A DNA stretch of 64,000 bases from Pelomyxa schiedti (GCA_020536535.1 JAHLWZ010000790.1:248001-312000); one strand, 5' to 3'; shown: positions 26,393 to 57,342, counted from the stretch's first letter. Translations and numbers: made by a program. Notes: generated by a model not told the origin, from the letters alone.

Positions 26393-29300
26393 ATGAGTTA
26401 CAACTTCAAAGCCGTGGAAAACGAAGTTCGCGAGTTCTGGAATGCACATGACATTGTGGCCAAAGCCAAGCACTTGGCACATTCGGGGCCACGTGGCAAA
26501 TGCTATTTCCTGGATGGTCCTCCTTACACAAGTGGGCACGTTCACATTGGCACTGCCTGGAACAAGAGTCTCAAGGATGCTTATATAAGGTAGGACTGAA
26601 GTGCCATATGATTTTCCCCAACTGCAATTCCTACTTACACTTGAAGGTTCAAGCGAATGAGTGGATGGGATATCTGGGATCGAGCTGGGTACGATATGCA
26701 CGGTCTCCCAACAGAACGAGCGACTGAAAAAGCACTCAATATCTTTGGAAAGATAGCCATTATGAAATATGGTGCAGAGCAATTTGTGGCTCAGTGCAAA
26801 AAAACCTGCATTGACAATGCTCGAGATATGAGTGCCACTTTTTCCTTCATGGGGGTGTGGATGGACTTCGAGAAAGCTTACATGACAGTAGACAAAGAGT
26901 ATATCGAAGGTTGAAATTCATGCACCCCTTGGTGTTCGTTTTCTTAATCCATGTTAGGAGTTTGGTGGTTTGTGCACCGAGCATTTGAGGAGGGTCGCCT
27001 CTACGAAGCTGAGAAAACAATGACATGGGACGCTGTTAATTCTACAGCACTTGCTAAGCATGAATTGGAGTATCACAATATTACTGACTCAGCAATCTAC
27101 GTCAAATTTGCCGTTAAACCCGCCCCAACAGACCCAGCAGAACCCAAAACCTACTTTGTCATTTGGACCACCACGCCTTGGACTATTCCTTTCAATTTGG
27201 CCGTAATGGCTGGCCCAGATATTGACTACGTTCGTATTCAAGTAGTACACAAGGGTGTATTACAAGTATGGGTAATTGCACAAGCCCGTCTAGAGGATTT
27301 TGTTGTTCAAGAGCTTGGAATTACAGAGTACAAAGTTCTCTGGTCGGGCAAAGGAAAAGATTTGTGTGGAATGGAATACGAGCACCCGTTCGCAACAATT
27401 AATGGAGTGTACGCGAAATTGAAAGCTTCCATGCCCAAAATCCACACTGTCCTAATGAGTGCGGAGTATGTAGACACAAAGACTGGTACGGGTTTGGTAC
27501 ATTGCGCTCCAGGTATTTTGTTCGCCTCTTACTACTGTTCTGTTCATCTTTCTTTCCAGGATGTGGTCCTGAGGATTATGTTGTTGGTCAAGAAAACGGG
27601 ATTGCTCCCTTCAATACAGTAGATGAAAACGGGTTCTTTACTAACCTTGAACCAATGACTGGACTACGGGCAAAGCTGGATGATCCAGACTTCATCAACC
27701 TCATTGACAAACAGGGCGCACTTGTGCACAAAGGTACCGTGGACCATGACTATGCTTTTGGCGAGAGGAGTAAAGCCCCAGTTATATTCCGTACTACAAG
27801 GCAATGGTTTTTGCGTGTAGAGGACCTAAAGCAGAAATTACTTGATGCCAACTCAGGAGTAACTTGGTACCCACAAGCTGCAAAGAATGCGTTTACAGCT
27901 TGGTTGAGTGGACTCCGGGATAATAGTATCAGCAAACAGCGGTTCTGGGGAACCCCCCTTCCCATTTGGAGAAGTGTTGATGATGCTTCCGATTGGGTTG
28001 TTGTTAAATCTGCAGAGGAGTTGTGTTCTCTAGCAGGACTGCCTCAGGGGTCTCTTGTCGATCTTCATCCACCAGTTGTAGATAAGGTAAACGCTCTTTC
28101 ATTGTGCCCAACTGACACTGTCAATCAAGATCGAGTTCACACGTGTAAGCCCAAAGGACTCGAAGCCCCATATTTATCACAGGGTTCCAGATATTCTTGA
28201 TGTGTGGGTGGATGCTGGTGCTGCTTTTTTCAATTGCTTGCAGATGCCTGGGGAACCTCCACGTGATCACCGTGCTAACTTCCTTCCAGCGGAATTTATT
28301 TTGGAGGGCAGAGACCAAATCCGTGGCTGGTTTAATTTGCTTCATCTGGAAAGCATGGTAGCCTTTGGAAAACCTTGCTTTGAACATGTATACATGCATG
28401 GCTTCGTGAACGATTCCCAGGGCAGGAAGATGAGTAAAACACAAGGAAATTACATTTTGCCACAGGAAGTGTGGGACAAGTATGGTGTAGACACTCTCAG
28501 GTACTATCTGACTGGTGCTGCTAATCCCGGTGAAGACATGAGCTACAACATGCTAGATGTAGAGCAGAAATTTAAGAATCTGGGAGTTTTCTGGAATATT
28601 CACCGTTATCTTCTTACAACATGCACAACCCTGGCAGATGTTGCTTTCCCTGTTCCCCTTGCCAAATTGGATCCCGCAACTCTCGGGATCGAAGATCGCT
28701 ATATTTTATCACGGCTCAACGCCACAATTCGGGATGCCACTCAAACATACGAGCAGCACAACATGCACAAAGTTCCCGTAATTGTAGAAGATTTTCTCAT
28801 GGAGTTGAGCCATGTTTACATCCAATTAATTTGGGAGAAAAAGGATAATGGGTCCCCTGCTGAAAAACAGGCTCTTCTCAGCACTCTCACATATTGTGTA
28901 ATCAACGCATTTGTAATGCTTTCTACTTTTGCACCATTCATTGCAGAGAAGATTTACCAGGTAACTTGTTAATTACGTACTTTCCCCAATGAACCAAAAA
29001 ATAGAACCTGCGTACAAGCAACCTTCCAGGAATGGCTGATTTTACTCCCGCGGAGTCCATTCACCATCTACCATGGCCCACATGTGACGCTAGAATGATT
29101 GATACACAACTTGAAGTTGACGTGAACGTGGCAAAGGATGCCATTGCAGCACTTCTTGTTGCTCGCGAAAAGGTCACTCTTCCTGTGAAGCAACCTTCAA
29201 GAGAGGTTAGAACTTGAATACTTGCCGTTTTCCTAACATTTCTTGTGTGTGTAGGCACGATTGGACTGCCCCACAAAATTAAAAGCATCCTTACAACGGA

Positions 29301-30023
29301 CTTCAGATCTCATTTCTTTGCGCACGGTATGTTGGTTTTTTAAATAGATAGTGCATCATTAATCACTCGTAGAACGTGAAAGCCCTCATTCTAGATCCTC
29401 CGGAAGCCACTATTACAGTCTCACCCAATAACAAAACAATCGGAAAGCAGTTTGGCCGCAATAGGCAACAGTTGTGTTCCTACATCGAAAAGAATGCAGC
29501 GGAAATTGGGGCCTCCCTCTGCAAAAGAACACCAACAACAGCTTCCGCATCCGCCAGTGCCTCAGCAACCTGGTCACTGAGTGTGGACCTAGCACTGCCC
29601 AGTGGCCCAATTGTGCTTACCGAGGAGCACATATCAGTTACACACGCAGTTCCGAAGCACTGGGCTGTTGGCAAGAATGGCGATTTGACTGCATTCGTGG
29701 ATACTACCAGGACTGACGAGCTAGAGTGGGAGGGCCGAGTGCGTGAGCTTGCACACAAAATCCAGCTGCTCCGTAAGAAAGGCGGGATGCAGAGGAACGA
29801 CAAGGCCCGCGTGCGGGTTCTGGTGCCCGGCAACGCCCCACAATTGGTTGCAGCCATTACCTCCAACGCCGTATTTCTTGCCGAGCGAACCGGCAGCCTT
29901 GAAGTAGCCGTTGCCGCTGTCGACGACCCCGCCGCCACCCTCGCAATCGAGGCTCCAACCGCCAGAGTCTCTTCAATTGACAAGGTGGCCTCGCACCCAA
30001 TTGCCTTGATCATACTCCCCTGA
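26393..30023 (+). CDS. ileS: Isoleucyl-tRNA synthetase of archaeal type, with about 7 introns
   Basis: Motifs: FLDGPPYTSGHVHIGTAWNKSLKD, GYDMHGLPTE, WTTTPWTIPFNLA, GTGLVHCAPGCG, ISKQRFWGTPLPIW, DVWVDAG, EGRDQIRGWF, GRKMSKTQGN, and type-2 C-terminus EGRVRELAHKIQLLRK. Confidence 0.95.
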
Positions 30024-30147: not shown

Positions 30148-33100
30148 ATGAGCAGTAATAATAATGCAGTGACGCCTAAGAAGAAGCACCACAGGCATTC
30201 GTTGGTCAAAGTAAGATCGTTTATACCGTGTGGGTAGTTGTGGGGATCTAAGTGCGCGTGGTAAAAGGTGAGTAAGACGGCGCCTACTACGTCGGCACTG
30301 CACGTTATTACTACGCAGTTGGATATGATACAAAGGAGCCCGGCAGCTCCGGACGCTACCGTACTTGACGCGTGCGGGAGGGAAATGGTGAAAGCGTTTT
30401 GGGCTGATACGGAGGAATTCACTCGCTCCCTTATAAGTGTCACAGACAGGCAACCTTTTATTTCAAATACAATTCTCTAATAATCTTTTGCTTTCCAGAA
30501 TCTTGCTTGTAGCAGATCAAGAGATCACAGCTAGGAAGGTTATTCTTGGCATAGCATCATTCTTCAAAAAAGTCTACTCCAACACAACCCCTTCACTGGA
30601 TTCCTCCACGACCGCGAGTAGCATTGAATCTCAACCCCACAAGAAGCTTGATGAAATAACATCAACATATCTGAGACATGTGGTGGAACGCTCTGGTGTG
30701 GCAAATAAATCCGTTAGGTTACGGACTTGCCAAATAGTGGAAGCAGTTTTGGCCCATCTTGGTACTGATGTGGACTTACCGTATGTATGACTTCTTGATT
30801 TAGAGGTTTTTACCATGTTAGAAATGATCTGTGGAATTTGTTGGAAGAGTCAATGCTGCCTCGGACCACTGACAAAATTGCAGCCGTTCGTGAGCAGGCT
30901 ATCTCTGCAATTAAACGGTGGGTATGTTCGTTTGGTATTATAGCCAACTTGTGCAGATTGCAGGATACAAGCACGAACGATAACCCTGTGGTCCAACGAT
31001 TTTTAAATATGATTGGGGTCGATCCATCCTGGTACCTTTTCTTCATCCAACTTCAACTTATTTGTTCGTTTAGCAAAGTTAGATGCTCGGTTCTTCATTC
31101 TATAGTCATATCACCTATTACTATACCTTCGATAATTCTCCGGACAAGGTTCCTTCCCCTTCAACCCTATTTTCTTTTAAAGACTTTCCACTTCCACACT
31201 CTTTATTTCTCTTGCATCCCAACTACAACCTGAAGCACAGGGACACCAAAGAAGATGTTCGAAAACTGGCTTATGAGATTATTGGGTCAAAGATAGATAT
31301 TCACCTGCTCACTTTGAAACAACGTGCTTTTCTTGTTCATGAAGGACTTGGGGATAGGTCTCTTGCTGTTCAACAGGCCTGCAAAGAAATGGTCACTGGG
31401 CCATGGCTAGTTTCCAGCAAGTCGGATCCAATTCTGGTACAAAGATCACGCATTGATTTCCTTTGACCATAGTGAAATACAAAAGCTCATTCAAAGACTA
31501 CATTTCAGTGAGAACCCAGAAGAAACTGAGATGGTTGCAAATTGCCTTGCTTTAGCTCACGCCTCTCCGCCACCTCCGCCCGGGGTTACTGGAAAGGGTG
31601 TCAAGTTGTCCGTAGAATACATTCTATTCCTCCGATCTATTTTAAAAACTGCTACTCCTGAGGAGTTACAGGTTTGTGATTACTGTAAGATCCTGAATTA
31701 ATTTTATGTAGACAGCGGAATCTGTTTTTCCTGAGATACTGTTGCTGTGCGGGGCAATCACGCATATCACAGGCAACAACAATCCAAACGTGAAGTTGGC
31801 TGTACAAATTCTCCTTCTAATACAGGAAATGATCACACATTCTATGTGTGAGGAGGGTGGAAAAACCGTCGTCTTAAATATGACTGGTGTGTTAGTACTG
31901 TCCTGTTGGCACAATCTTACTTCCTTGTAGGTCACCTGTTCACAATCTCAAATTTAGATCAGGAAATCATAGAAGCAGCTGTACCACCATTTGTCTTGCT
32001 CCATGAAGACCAATCCGCTTGTGACAAGTACCTCTATTAGTCAATACAACTGCTTAATAGTGTAGGGTACTTGTCAGAACATTGAATGAAATGCAGAATA
32101 AAGCACACAAAGCTGCTCTTTTGCATCAAATGGCTCTTCTTGTCTGTTGTGATTTCTTCTTCCAAGTAGTGACAGTGATTAGGACCCAGCAGATCGAAAA
32201 TTACTTCCTCTTATTGAGTCTGTTGTACTTCCGTGTATTCAGAATGCTGACTCCAAACTTCGTCTATTGGGCGTCAAGTGCCTGTCCGTCCTGTGCTTGA
32301 CTTCGGAACCAGTTGCAAGAGATCACATTACATTGCTATCACAAATAGCAAGACATGATACAGCAGAAATTAGGTTAATTGCCATAAAGGTATTCGCGAG
32401 AAAATCAGCTTTTCATGACCATGCTTAATAGGCGCTTTTCGATTTGGCTTTCGCACACGGAATTAATCATTTCGTTATACACCTTTCCAGTAACACAGCA
32501 GCAGTTGAATCTTCTAGTACTGCCGCAGTTGGTGCGAACCAAACTGAGGCCTTATGCGATGTTCTACGCGAATTCGTGGCCAGTGACGAACCAGCTGTGC
32601 AAGATACTGCAGCTGAAGGATTTGCTAAGCTTATGTATAACGACTTGATAGATGACGCAACTGTAATTTTTTTTCTTAATCTTTAATCACTCATAAGTTC
32701 GCATCAGGTGCTTGGGGTTCTAGTGATAATATTCTTCAGCCCTGATACCGCAAACTCAGCCAGACTACAACAATGCCTTTCAGTCTTTTTTGACACCTAC
32801 ACAAAAGAGCACCCTAATAGTATCTACTCCTATTCAATTCTTCACCTCATCAAATGGTAAGAGTTTTTGCATCGAAAGATGATAGAAGACTGCTTCTTCC
32901 AAGTTGTAATGATGTTACTTGCAGCAAAATCTGGAAGTGGCCTATCAACTGTAGATGCTATGTCAGTAGTTCGGTTTTTACTTGATCTTATTTCTCCTCT
33001 GTCACTTCCTGATGACTCCCCGTATGCCAAGCTGATAAAGCACAGAAAATATATTTAATACCGCAATTTTAGGGCTTGTGAGGAAGTGAAAACAGCACAT

Positions 33101-35025: not shown

Positions 35026-35979
35026 TCACACCAAATCGCCCTCTTCGCAATCATTGAAGTCCCAGTGCCTTTGTTCACCCCCAGGAAGGAAATCACTGCA
35101 GCCATTCTTCTCCAACACCCACGAGTTTGACTTTCCAAACAGAACATGTGACACACTGCAGACTCCACAATGCACAGGGCACACCTGATGCACAGCGGCC
35201 CTCACAGCAGCTATTACAGTGGCCGCATGCCCAACAAACATGACAGACTTGCCTTCACATCCACACCCGCAAAGCCTGGATGAAAAGCCATGCTTTGAGC
35301 TGACACTTGCGGCCGGTGTTCCCTTGGGGCAAAGTACATTGTAGTGGCGTAGTATCTCGGCCACCAAATGGGCACAGCGGTCGTGGAGTTGCTGCACAGT
35401 CTCGGGTGTTGTGGGAACGCGGACAAGTGTGGTGTATGACAGGTCTAGGGCCCCGGGGAATTCTTTATCCAACAACTCCACACTGGGAACCTCTAGTGCT
35501 GGCCATTCACACAGTCCCTCCTCTATCTTGATTTTCAGACCCAATGGCTTTTTCCCAAGTTAGACACATAGTAATAAATATTGCAACCCAGAATGAAATA
35601 AATAACAATAAGAGAATATATCGAGATACCGGGCGGGAAAAAAAAAAAAAACAAAAAACAAAAAAATAAAAACACACCCTGGCAACTTCTAGAGCGGTTC
35701 GAACGCACCTGACGAAAGGAGAACATAGGATGAACCCCACGGTGGGCACGCCAGACCGAGGCGTGTCCCTCACGAACGCCGACATCATCGCAGCTTGCTG
35801 TATTCCATGCTCGGAAAGTGGGGGATCGTACGCCCGTTCCGGGGACGGGGGCACCCACTCCTCAACAAAGTCCTGCCTTGTTGTTGTTGTTGTGTTTGTT
35901 TGGTATCGTGGTTTGTTGACGAAGGAGCTAACCTCTCGCCGTGCCGCACGAAAACGAGATCCGGCAGGTGGAACATCAT
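35026..35979 (-). CDS. Histidine phosphatase / phosphoglycerate mutase family protein
   Basis: Motifs: LVFVRHGER|QDF, DPPLSEHGIQQA, CSPFVRCVRTA, IKIEEGLCEW, VMFVGHAA. Confidence 0.9.
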
Positions 35980-36236
35980 TTGTTGGGATGAGATGGAGTG
36001 ATTTGACAGTGTGGGTGGAACCTGGAGGATGTGGTAGCAACGAAACGATATTCATGGCCTTGGCAACCTGATCTAAGGGTTCCTTTGAGAAGGCAAGGAA
36101 GAACCTCCCTTCAACTGTGTTGTCCATCATCAATCTGGCATTCAGCGAAAGTCAAGTTCGGAGTTTGATCATTTTTCGGTACTTGCATTAGAGACGAAGC
36201 AGGGAACGCGGGTCGTTGGTGGATAACTTCGCAATA

Positions 36237-38668: not shown

Positions 38669-40518
<1,850 letters not shown>

Positions 40519-40760
40519 GTCGTTTTGGTTTTTGAAAGAGATTCCGGGAACCGCGATAAGCATCCGAGGAACCAAGTGGCACTCAGAGAATCGATTACGG
40601 GAATCCCCTCTGATAGGAAGGTGCGGACTTGGATTTCGGTCCTGAGGTAACTTGTTGGTCCATACCACGAAACTCCTTGATGTGCCTCTAATCAGGCCCT
40701 TATAAGTTCGAATGATCTCAAAAAACATAACCAAAAAAGAAGCCCAAGACAGTGAAAAAA

Positions 40761-42742
40761 ATGTCGGCACAGCCACCGACCACCACGACCGCAGCAGCTA
40801 CATCCTCAGTGAGTGACACAAGATCTGGGTGGAACTCGTGTTCATGTGCCTGGCACCTGGTACGCATCCCGCCGTTACTGCTGCCACCCGGATCTGCGAC
40901 AGTCGGCGGTGTTAACAATGGTGGCGGTGTTGGCGGCGGCGGCGAGGGGAACGTCGCGCCGTGCGAAGTGCCTGCGATGATACACCTCGCGAATGGCGAC
41001 GTCACTGTGGGCAGGCTGGTGACGAACACTGTCATGATTAACAGCCCCGTCATTTCTCGAAACCACGCGATTTTCCGCCCTGTGGTACTTATTCCGTACA
41101 TAACTTTTTTTTCCCCTTCTGCAGTTCTTTCTTTGTTTAACAAGCCTCTTGTGCTTCCTCTTAGCCGAGTGCTGATGGTACAATCACTTGGAGAGTAACT
41201 GACCTCAAAAGTTCGAACGGCATTCATGTCAATGAGACGAAGATCGCTAAAGAGACGCCACTTCACGCCGGGGATGTTGTAGCTCTTGGAATGGATGATC
41301 AGTACAAGTATCGGCTTACCAGAAGGCCTAGTTCAGCAGTTATTTCCTCTGCAGCTGTTCCTCATTCAGGTGAAGCTGTGGGCACTGATAATGAAGGTAC
41401 AACACTGTATGCTGATTCCCATTAACCGTTTACAAGATGCCAAACCACATCAACCTGTAACCAAAAGACCTCGATGTCAAGTTTTGAACGAGGCACCACC
41501 TCTACAACACCCCCAAAACTACCAACAGCAACCCCCACCGCAACCAGCATTTCCACCCCTCCAGCGAGTATATTTCCCACCTCCACAACCTTCACCTTCA
41601 CCACTCGTACAACCTACACCTCCGACTAATACGTTCAAAATAGCACCACCAGCATTCTGGGTACCCCCCAAAGATCCCCCTCTACCATACCACCCCCCAA
41701 GAGAACCAATTGTTCCCCCACCTATTTCCACTACACCCATGAATAGTTTACCTCCAGTTTTCAGCACCATAAATTGTATACCTTCTACGTCCACACCTAA
41801 ACCTGACGTTCCTATGCCAGTAGCACAACCTTCCACACACTCCGCTTGTGCACCTCAATCTTCATCAAATCATACATCCACATTGCCAAACGCTGTCCAA
41901 GAAGAGTTTACATGTACAATCTGCCAGCAAATTTTCGATGATCCCTGCACTCTCGAGTGTGGTCATAGGTAAGACGTTTCTAACTTTTGTACATATGAAG
42001 TCTTTCGCTGGTTCTCATAACTAATAGCTTTTGCATGAAATGCATCACCACATGGAAAAGAAAGCAGCCACTGTGTCCCATGTGCAGAACCAAAGTAGTT
42101 ACAGCACACCATTTGAAATACTCACTACAAACTAGATAACAACGAAACTTAGGCAAACAATTGCCCTTAAGAATACTATTGAGCTTCTAAGAAAAACAGG
42201 CCAACTCCCACGTATTTCTTACATAAGATTGGCAGTCGAATTTACCTGCACAATAGCAAAAAATGAACCTGCTACAACGTGGGAATTTTCTCTTGAAAGT
42301 CCTTATACAAAACCAAGCATGGTGAAAGGCACCATTGTTTTTGGGGAACCTCACAATCCTCTCCCACTTCGTATTGTTTTGGATAACCGAGTTGCTACTG
42401 CATCACTTCTTACGTAAATTGCATTCATCTCAAGTAAAGAATTAATCAGCTGTCAAGTTACTTTCAACAAGTGCTTGGGCAGGCCACGCAAAAATTATCT
42501 GTCTGGAATCTACTTCCACTGACTGCCCCAGAGGAGGAGCATTTCCAGGATTTAATGGCATATTACTGTTCTCTAAACAGGTACTTCACACGTGGCTCTT
42601 GCCTTTTTTTAAAAAAAACCAAACAACCAGGTCGGCGTGTGTCAAAATTCTACAAACGGACTTTTATGTTGTACCGTTCTTGGACCTGGGAAATGATTGG
42701 TACAAGTTCTTTGTTTCTCTGGACCAGAGGTGGTTGTGCTAA
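40761..42742 (+). CDS. FHA + RING E3 ligase (CHFR/RNF8-like) with a possible C-terminal SPOC-like domain
   Basis: FHA: VTVGR..ISRNHA..DLKSSNGIHVN..LHAGDVV. RING: CTICQQIFDDPCTLECGH|SFCMKC..CPMCR. C-terminus: LPLRIVLDNRV..HFQDLMAYY..RVGV..DFYVVP. 3' end approximate. Confidence 0.8.
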
Positions 42743-54940: not shown

Positions 54941-57342
54941 ATGCAGCAGCCGTTCCTGGACGCTTATCACCTGGGCTGTGCAATACCATCCCAATGCAAC
55001 TATATTGTGAGGACAGTGACTCCGCATTCATCCGAAGAAGTGTGTACTTTTTCCTCTTGGTTTGGGTGTTTTCCTCACAGAACCACCTCTAAACCGCCCT
55101 ATCAGCGCAAAAGAGTTCAAGAGGAAACCGACTACAACGTATTCAATTTCCCCAGTGATTTGCTCATTTGTGATTTCCTGACTGACAGTGGAGTCACAGC
55201 AATGACTGATGTCCAATGGGCTTCCCTCTTCCGAGGGTACTACAAACTCACGACACAAAAATCCCATCTCTTAATCTTTTTTTCCGCAGAGATGAGGCCT
55301 ATGGTATCTCACTGCTTATCTTGACTATGTGTATTTGACATACCCACCTTCAGGGAGAAATCACGGCTACTTCGCCCTCCTTGCTGCAGTCAGAGACGTT
55401 TTTGAAAGGGGGACGGAAAACCCCAACAAGCTTGTTAGTAACTTGACTATTGACGAGCCAACGTAAGAGCGCCAACAAAGGCAACTACTTTTAACTTTTT
55501 TTTCCCCACAGTGCAATTGCTGCAATTATGGACGAGGTTTCAAATCCTCCTAGTGGGGGATTCGTAAATGGTACTTTGTGCAATGTGCTTTGAATAGACC
55601 CAAATGTATAAAAAGGTGGAGTACACCAACTCGTGAGGCCAAACTTCTTCCTTGTACCCCAAGCAAGGTGTGCTGAAGCTATCATATTCCCAACTATCAA
55701 GGACATTGTCACACAAGTGGGAATAAAGGTTCCCAAAACCATGCTCTCTTCCCCTGAGGCAGTGTCTTGGAAGGTACCTCTTCCATCTAAAAATTGCCTG
55801 CCCATTTGAAGTAACCTTGAACCTTTTTTTTTGGTAGGCAGAGAGTTTCGCTTATTCTGGACCCACCTATTGTATAGCCAGCAATGGGTTCTTTGATACA
55901 ACTGCAGCTCATGTGTCTGCTGCTGGATTCGAAGCTATAAACCTGGTCACACCGAACATACTGCAACAACTAGAAGGCACTCCCTCTGGGAAAAATCACT
56001 TTTTGGTAAATAAAATGCTCCTCTAGCTTTAACACTTTAACACAAGACAGGGTAATTTGGACCTTAACCTTATGCAAGATTTGATTGCCAAAAGAGGACC
56101 CGAGTTGGTGATGGTAATACTTACTATCACAAATAATACTTCTGCTGGCCAACCCGTTTCCATGAAAAATATCCGGCTCACTTCTGAATTGTGCCACAGA
56201 CATAACGTACCACTTATTTTCGATGCTGGCCGATTTGCTGAAAATATCTACTTCATTAGAAAGGTAAGATGCCCGAAGGTCTTTCACAACAAATGAAACT
56301 TTCTATAGTACGAGCCTGGGTACTCGACCTGCTCTACGTACCAAATTGCTCGTGAAATGTTTTCTTATTGCGATGGGTAACATTGATTCTCTTCCTCCTA
56401 GCATCTCATCGAGGCAATTTCTCCTTTTTTTGGCGGGGTGTAAAATTAGGTTCATTTTTGGAGCGAAGAGAGACGCTCTTTCCAATATCGGAGGATTCTT
56501 CTGTTTCCGCGATAAGGGGTTGTTTCATCAGAAGTTCTCCGTAGGTGGAAAAGATGTTGGTGTAATCCTGAAGGAGAAACAAATTCTGAATTATGGAAAT
56601 GACAGGTACTTCTCCAAGGTATTCATCTTTATCCTAATTTTTATCAGTTATGGTGGCGTAAGTGGTCGTGAGATTATGGCCATTGCAAGTGGTTTGTATC
56701 AGGTGATGCAGCCTGACTACCTTGAGCGTCGTGTCGAACAAGTTGGGGGTCTTGCACTTGGAATGAAGAATGCCGGTGTTGCTGGCGTCATAATGCCTAC
56801 TGCTGGTCATGCAGTATATTTGGATATGAACAAGTTCTTTGAGGGTACCGGAAGAGAGGTCTCAGAATTTGGAGGATTAGGATTTGTTATAGAACTTATC
56901 AGGCTCTATGGCATAAGGTACCAGCTTCCAACGAGTTACGGTATTCACCTCACACAGGGCCTGTGAACTCGGTCCCTTCGCGTTTGAGTGGGACTTGAAG
57001 CCAGAAGCCGAACAGGCAAACATGTTCAACTTTGTCAGGTTGTCTGATGGCTATCTTCCAAAGCTCCAACTAAACATTTCTTCAGATTTGCCATCCCAAG
57101 GAACATGTACAATGAAGAACACATACAATACACCATCTCCTGCGTTTCTGAGCTGTACCGTAACAGGGAACGCATCCCCAAGGTCTGTCTCTGAGCAATA
57201 GCATAACAAAAAAAAAAAAAAAGCACCTTACACCTTCCAGGTGGCGCTGTCGTACGGCAAGAATTTAAGGCTCAGACACATGCACTGTGGTATCAAGCCC
57301 ACCTACCACAATGGAGAACTGCACTCAGACCTAGCACTATAA
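54941..57342 (+). CDS. Tryptophanase / tyrosine phenol-lyase family protein with a substituted PLP lysine (AKRD)
   Basis: Motifs: DFLTDSG, G|DEAYG, FFDTT, TITNNTSAGQPVSM, DAGRFAEN, YGGVSGRE, GHAVYLD, YGIR.CELG, VRFAIPR. The canonical S(A/G)KKD motif reads GAKRD. Confidence 0.88.

Follow-up and report, generated by a model that had tools for sequence, protein, structure and literature searches.

Andersson et al. are said to have traced, in 2005, the ProRS and AlaRS of diplomonads and parabasalids to Nanoarchaeota. The isoleucyl-tRNA synthetase (IleRS) gene of Pelomyxa schiedti described here would represent the same kind of event, a DPANN-to-protist transfer of an aminoacyl-tRNA synthetase, but with a different enzyme, a different host group (Amoebozoa, among them aerobic protosteloids) and a different donor subgroup.

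The closest described enzymes are the IleRS-A. In the portions of PMC13752280 available, IleRS-A is defined as archaeal, and the eukaryotic IleRS1 and IleRS2 are both derived from bacteria. Sensitivity to mupirocin and intolerance of the GIHH swap are biochemical characters for which variation within the IleRS-A clade is stated there, and the characterised IleRS-A of a Woesearchaeota archaeon (WaIleRS-A) is implied by its GIHT mutant to carry the HIGT form of the HIGH motif. The Pelomyxa enzyme shares with IleRS-A, as those portions describe it, the canonical HIGH motif (HIGT), a type-2 C-terminus with INS and ARD3, and the absence of a zinc-binding domain; in the trees its neighbours are Woesearchaeota and other archaeal enzymes, and it belongs to neither IleRS1 nor IleRS2. 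It differs in that the gene is eukaryotic and has introns, and in that a Trp replaces R721, a residue termed 'strictly conserved' in the same source. The eukaryotic cytosolic IleRS2 (yeast, 8WND; cytoplasmic, 9W01) has the same fold, domain order and N34 pocket arginine (yeast R999), but it belongs to another clade, shares only about 25-29% identity with the Pelomyxa enzyme in structural alignments, and has the residues R736 and R739 (yeast numbering), neither of which is found in Pelomyxa.

The string 'Amoeb' does not occur in the main text of PMC13752280, nor do Pelomyxa, Mastigamoeba, Protostelium or Amoebozoa in four supplementary files of that paper; EukProt was used in the study, so its data may include these amoebal sequences without comment. 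The available part of the Mastigamoeba genome paper (PMC8136499) does not mention the gene, although m51a1_g596 may be among the entries of its LGT table S12, and the supplements of the Pelomyxa genome paper do not mention IleRS. In the literature searched, outside of which most subscription papers lie, neither the occurrence of an archaeal IleRS in amoebae nor the Trp substitution is reported. As far as this literature goes, a eukaryotic IleRS-A is new, and so is one without the anticodon-reading arginine, whereas DPANN-to-protist transfer of a synthetase already has a precedent.

Structure and expression of the gene

The gene lies in a window of 64,000 nucleotides of the P. schiedti genome (the whole stretch of DNA that was analysed). 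The positions of its features, counted from the first nucleotide of the window, are collected in Table 1.

Table 1. Features of the P. schiedti IleRS gene, in window coordinates.
Feature	Position	Strand	Remarks
IleRS gene, ATG to TGA	26393..30023	+	8 exons, 1098 aa (KAH3758278.1)
Exon 1	26393..26589	+	holds the HIGH-type motif; no presequence, register same as in archaeal proteins
HIGH motif (HIGT)	26543..26554	+	residues 51-54
Intron 1	26590..26646	+	57 nt, GT-AG; joined in one RNA contig
Intron 2	26910..26957	+	48 nt, GT-AG; deduced from reading frame and homology, outside RNA contig coverage
Intron 3	27513..27559	+	47 nt; joined in RNA contigs
Intron 4	28087..28129	+	43 nt; joined in RNA contigs
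KMSK motif	28427..28438	+	residues 614-617
Trp749 (TGG)	28832..28834	+	replaces the arginine that reads A35/U36 (R721 in P. megaterium, R739 in yeast)
Intron 5	28961..29004	+	44 nt; joined in RNA contigs
Intron 6	29206..29254	+	49 nt; joined in RNA contigs
Arg881	29321..29323	+	in ARD2; candidate compensating residue, common to 8/8 clade rows
Intron 7	29327..29372	+	46 nt; joined in RNA contigs
Exon 8	29373..30023	+	type-2 C-terminus (INS + ARD3, PF19302), without zinc-binding domain
N34 wobble-base pocket, Gln1013 + Arg1016	29763..29774	+	motif match to P. megaterium Q961/R964, yeast Q996/R999

The spliced product of 1098 residues has no internal stop and is letter for letter the protein deposited as 'Isoleucyl-tRNA synthetase [Pelomyxa schiedti]' (KAH3758278.1). 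A sequence-only reading of the locus had counted about seven short introns and quoted four protein motifs; there are exactly seven, all GT-AG and 43-57 nt long, and the spliced frame contains the four motifs, which lie at residues 39, 76, 183 and 573. Such a number of introns is typical for the Pelomyxa genome, for which the available part of PMC8887013 gives 7.43 introns per gene. In contigs of the RNA runs X3 and X4, introns 1 and 3-7 (six of the seven) are skipped at the predicted sites, and in the DNA runs X1 and X2 a single contig spans the whole 4.8 kb and reaches into the beginning of the next gene. All four runs, DNA and RNA, come from one study, possibly the source of the assembly, and the RNA contigs are therefore not independent support. 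Relative to the archaeal proteins, the Pelomyxa IleRS has no N-terminal extension. In sum, this is a transcribed, spliced and intact gene of the IleRS-A type.

One RNA contig of X3 has an A-to-G difference at 27104, which may be an allele or an error. The next gene downstream, which is intron-rich (30149-32700, + strand) and starts about 125 nt past the IleRS stop, matches Cnd3 (condensin subunit G). Elsewhere in the window there are fragments of the histidine phosphatase superfamily (35029-36151, - strand), the start of an adenylosuccinate lyase (40042-40797, - strand; best match PRK09285), and a fragment matching tryptophanase and tyrosine phenol-lyase models (56268-56963, + strand), possibly a bacterial-type gene in this anaerobe. 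No tRNA genes were found within the window.

Identity of the enzyme

The Pelomyxa protein scores 705.6 bits with TIGR00392 (ileS), for which the cut-off is 621.4 bits, and ValRS models remain under their cut-offs. The HIGT, KMSK and editing motifs are kept, the HIGH motif being canonical and not GIHH. A match to PF19302, together with the lack of any CxxC in the protein, identifies a type-2 C-terminus from which the zinc-binding domain is absent. The predicted structure (pLDDT 93) is that of a complete IleRS with a type-2 C-terminus and aligns over residues 1-1098 with 8c8v (Z 40.3, rmsd 4.2, 949 residues aligned); matches in the ESM Atlas were generic IleRS clusters only. The mitochondrial and bacterial type, IleRS1, was ruled out, as the C-terminal zinc-binding domain is missing and the sequence falls outside the IleRS1 clade. 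In a tree of the HUP domain only (79 rows x 344 columns), the Pelomyxa IleRS falls in a clade (SH-aLRT 88) whose other members are archaeal, Methanobacteriaceae among them, with IleRS1 (99) and IleRS2 (100) separate. A small, quick tree rooted with ValRS left IleRS1 alone and joined IleRS-A to IleRS2 (99), unlike PMC13752280, in which the HUP domain of IleRS-A is nearer to that of IleRS1 (HUP-1), and this was true for all archaeal rows. The Pelomyxa enzyme is a eukaryotic member of IleRS-A, a group described in 2026 as archaeal.

A further sequence character concerns residues 175-190 (about 27020-27070), where a zinc-type CxxC precedes the TALAKHE motif in 64 of the 84 other rows having that motif. 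It is absent from all 8 amoebal and all 13 sister rows (P0006-P0050), and a loss common to both would be consistent with the donor group.

Relatives and phylogenetic position

In a search with the full-length protein, 7998 candidates were scored and the best 120 listed. Among these, the amoebal matches are Mastigella eilhardi (64% identity) and Mastigamoeba balamuthi (60%), accompanied by the metagenomic clusters P0003 (62%) and P0004 (59%); an archaeal group at about 46-51% comes next, then Planoprotostelium fungivorum (45%) and Protostelium nocturnum (44%). A further EukProt cluster, P0110/P0136, was also found in the search. The best non-amoebal match among the 120 is archaeal (P0006; 51% identity, 1213 bits), compared with 409 and 386 bits for the structures of cytoplasmic eukaryotic IleRS. 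All named archaeal matches listed are Woesearchaeota, Nanoarchaeota or DPANN, except one named 'archaeon'. P0006 is identical to a gene of G210, a genome of our 401-genome sample from the Nanobdellota (the phylum of a Nanoarchaeota MAG), and the contig carrying it also encodes an archaeal TFIIB and a homologue of ZPR1, together with a TFE-like gene that scores below cut-off. The cluster of the sister sequence P0013 includes HIH23983.1 of a Woesearchaeota archaeon. P0006 had no match in viral contigs, nor P0001 in genome contigs.

Five amoebal species are named in the best-120 lists, and a profile search with the amoebal rows added no named eukaryote to its best 120; among the matches listed there is no Entamoeba, dictyostelid or other variosean, and each named species has one cluster of this IleRS type. 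According to the NCBI taxonomy four of the hosts belong to Evosea, Pelomyxa and Mastigella being Archamoebae and the two protosteloids Variosea; Mastigamoeba is an archamoeba in the available text of PMC8318970. P0003 and P0004 are assigned to the amoebal clade by tree position only. Against metagenome contigs, P0003 gave 27 loci at 38-54% identity, its own gene not among them. The P0003 and P0004 clusters (P0122-P0135) consist of uninterrupted 1101-aa ORFs on metagenomic contigs of up to 40.8 kb, which suggests intron-poor uncultured Archamoebae as their hosts. Four short identical pieces in runs X5 and X6 were rejected as evidence of habitat, being short and of low depth.

Trees were built from 341 rows (FastTree; rows under 880-900 aa were left out), from 77 hand-picked rows and from 42 rows. 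The sets contained neither true eukaryotic IleRS2 nor Asgard IleRS, and IleRS2 was represented by giant-virus enzymes as stand-ins; one of these, L138, scores 987 and 968 bits against the cytoplasmic IleRS structures, and viral IleRS were grouped with eukaryotic IleRS in the part of PMC11304981 available. Pelomyxa, Mastigella, Mastigamoeba, the two protosteloids and three more sequences form an amoebal clade of 8 rows, which in the LG+C20+F+G4 PMSF tree (42 rows x 891 columns) has support of 98/93. It is nested first with 6 archaeal rows (98/97), then with 8 (100/99), and lies beneath further supported Nanobdellota nodes; LG+G4 (42 rows) gives 100/97 and 100/99. Within the amoebal clade Pelomyxa pairs with Mastigella, the Archamoebae are together and the protosteloids lie outside, in agreement with the NCBI taxonomy. 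The amoebal stem is short (0.07 in the PMSF tree) and lies beneath three long branches.

In AU tests under LG+G4, for which the first two constrained trees were obtained by fast searches alone, both a grouping with the viral IleRS2 stand-ins L138 and L146, i.e., with the eukaryotic cytosolic type (delta lnL 456, p=3e-5), and an origin outside, with Nanobdellota held together without the amoebae (delta lnL 252, p=1.5e-4), were rejected, as were two trees with separate transfers (p=0.019 and 0.027). A position of the amoebae as sister to the 8-row archaeal group is not separated from one within it (p=0.51). The 16-row clade of amoebae and Woesearchaeota keeps a support of 99.8 without the three trait columns, 92/93 after SR4 recoding, and 96-99.8 after removal of the fastest 10-40% of sites. 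The amoebal clade itself has 96.6 without the trait columns and 93.6/97 after SR4 recoding, and after removal of the fastest 10-40% of sites it falls to 54-68 and is lost at 30%. The donor is therefore firm, and a single origin is likely but softer.

The lateral transfer from a Woesearchaeota-like archaeon proposed in the sequence-only reading is thus borne out by similarity, trees and AU tests, with the amoebal clade nested in Woesearchaeota (100/99); the maximum-likelihood phylogeny, in which giant-virus IleRS2 stood in for the eukaryotic enzyme, did not place the gene within eukaryotic IleRS. An origin of the gene in Woesearchaeota is very probable. The transfer is older than Pelomyxa, as it is common to other Archamoebae and Variosea. 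The GTDB family of G210 is split up in the IleRS tree, from which it follows that the IleRS gene also moves among these archaea and that the donor family is not nameable. L002, the IleRS of a MAG titled Methanosarcinales, also branches among Nanobdellota, by inter-archaeal transfer or as a mis-binned contig.

The anticodon-binding site

In the portions of PMC13752280 available, R721 of P. megaterium IleRS2 is described as critical for A35 and U36, and its replacement by alanine abolished aminoacylation (R721A, < 0.001 per second). The available text of PMC11685878 reports for the yeast enzyme that R739 makes six hydrogen bonds in the anticodon loop, and that R739A is inactive in aminoacylation and keeps tRNA-independent editing. 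A HMMER alignment, ungapped in this region, places S713 and R721 of the P. megaterium enzyme at S741 and W749 of Pelomyxa; yeast R739 falls at the same position, five residues past a conserved Tyr. Counted over the 341-row alignment, from which the duplicate L108 was dropped, position 749 is Trp in 8/8 amoebal rows and Arg in 13/13 sister rows, and among the 319 others it is Arg in 302 and Lys in 17. The basic residue of ARD1 that reads A35/U36 (R721/R739; Lys in IleRS1) is absent from the Pelomyxa IleRS. Three extra fragments join the clade: P0197 has Trp749 and Arg881, P0204 has Gln749 and Arg881, and P0202 ends short of the site. The arginine is accordingly missing in every member that covers the site, and the Trp is not universal.

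Position 881, which is Arg in all 8 amoebal rows, is occupied by Gln or Leu in the archaeal sister rows; Arg881 also occurs together with Arg749 in 6 distant archaeal-type rows. We put forward the hypothesis that Arg881 lies near Trp749 and takes over the lost contacts. The position of yeast R736 is Gln in the Pelomyxa IleRS, likewise in the archaeal donors. Since the alanine mutants are inactive and R736 is replaced by Gln, activity on tRNA-Ile cannot be assumed; Trp749 weakens the case for conventional anticodon reading but not for homology with IleRS. The other residues of ARD1 (N670, Y674, and S741) are kept, as are Q1013, R1016, and K1017 of the N34 pocket. The N34 arginine is argued, in the available part of PMC11685878, to read I34 and pseudouridine-34 in the way it does G34, and the kept pocket would therefore suit eukaryotic tRNAs.

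A motif in the Trp form had 5 matches in the 401 genomes of the order of G210 (some of them marked unpublished), none in an IleRS gene, and the Arg form matches 41 of the 47 stored archaeal loci; a short search, used for presence counts only, gave 312 of the 401. A reading of TGG as Arg was rejected, because 19 of 23 TGG codons fall in columns where Trp is conserved, and RNA editing was rejected as well, positions 28832-28834 being unchanged in the RNA contigs. Reassignment of a codon to Ile was not seen: ATH codons occupy 15 of the 21 conserved-Ile columns, and the rest are scattered.

Proposed history and alternatives

The history that we favour, and regard as somewhat probable, is a single transfer from Woesearchaeota to early Evosea, giving a cytosolic housekeeping IleRS with a remodelled anticodon site that has probably replaced the native enzyme. 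The gene would have come from a Woesearchaeota cell shortly before the split of the Archamoebae and protosteloid lineages, as suggested by the short stem, and would have gained its introns after the transfer. Trp749 and Arg881 would have been fixed on the amoebal stem as an adaptation to eukaryotic tRNA-Ile, Trp749 perhaps stacking on the anticodon loop and Arg881 assuming the lost contacts. The product would then be cytosolic and charge tRNA-Ile via the remodelled site, and the native IleRS2 would have been lost. With the patchy distribution observed, a single early gain requires that the acquired and the native enzyme coexisted for a long time and that losses were numerous.

That distribution and the lost arginine make a serious, if tentative, case for a second specialised IleRS of the same Woesearchaeota origin, acting beside the native one on one isoacceptor, in editing or as a back-up against natural inhibitors of eukaryotic IleRS, with the Arg-to-Trp change marking the change of role. 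Presence is patchy across Evosea, the residue lost is essential elsewhere, and the corresponding yeast mutant retains its editing without tRNA in what is available of PMC11685878. The retention of the N34 pocket, N670, Y674, S741, INS and ARD3, however, points to continued binding of tRNA-Ile, and only one such cluster per named species is found among the matches listed.

Unlikely, by comparison, is a more complex route, with either entry into one amoebal lineage followed by spread from eukaryote to eukaryote, or two to three separate acquisitions from related Woesearchaeota. Both Trp749 and Arg881 are found in 8/8 members and in 0/13 sister rows, the amoebal clade is kept without the trait columns and under SR4 recoding, and the AU tests reject the two-transfer trees, although transfer from eukaryote to eukaryote lies outside these tests. 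The patchy distribution would nevertheless fit such a route, as would the short amoebal stem under three long branches and the drop in clade support when fast sites are removed.

More doubtful still is a switch of tRNA specificity after the transfer, whereby the enzyme, with Trp in place of the A35/U36-reading arginine, would activate Ile and put it on, or edit, a tRNA whose anticodon is different or specially modified, beside a native IleRS. Wholesale codon reassignment is not seen in the IleRS gene, so that this role would be partial or conditional. If true, deep amoebal lineages would have conserved a class I synthetase whose specificity had been switched in nature.

It is very improbable that the gene descends from an archaeal IleRS of the eukaryotic ancestor, which these amoebae would have retained and other eukaryotes replaced. 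The available portions of PMC13752280 trace the cytosolic IleRS of other eukaryotes to bacteria, which leaves room for an archaeal enzyme before it, and the trees contained no Asgard sequence; but the clade lies beneath several well-supported Nanobdellota nodes, and a position outside Nanobdellota is rejected. Contamination by an archaeon in the culture, for which the archaeal nearest prokaryotic matches might speak, is in effect excluded by the splicing of seven spliceosomal introns (six joined in RNA contigs), the argument already made in the sequence-only reading, and also faces the one contig that extends into the condensin gene and the orthologues in four other named amoebae.

Significance

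The gene adds a third and directly archaeal source of eukaryotic IleRS to the bacteria-only model of 2026. It suggests gene flow from Woesearchaeota, which are uncultured archaea with small genomes, into an early amoebal lineage, and hence close contact between the two. It further provides a natural variant without a residue that two structural studies held to be indispensable for anticodon reading, through which the adaptation of class I synthetases to a foreign tRNA pool becomes testable by a few point mutants.
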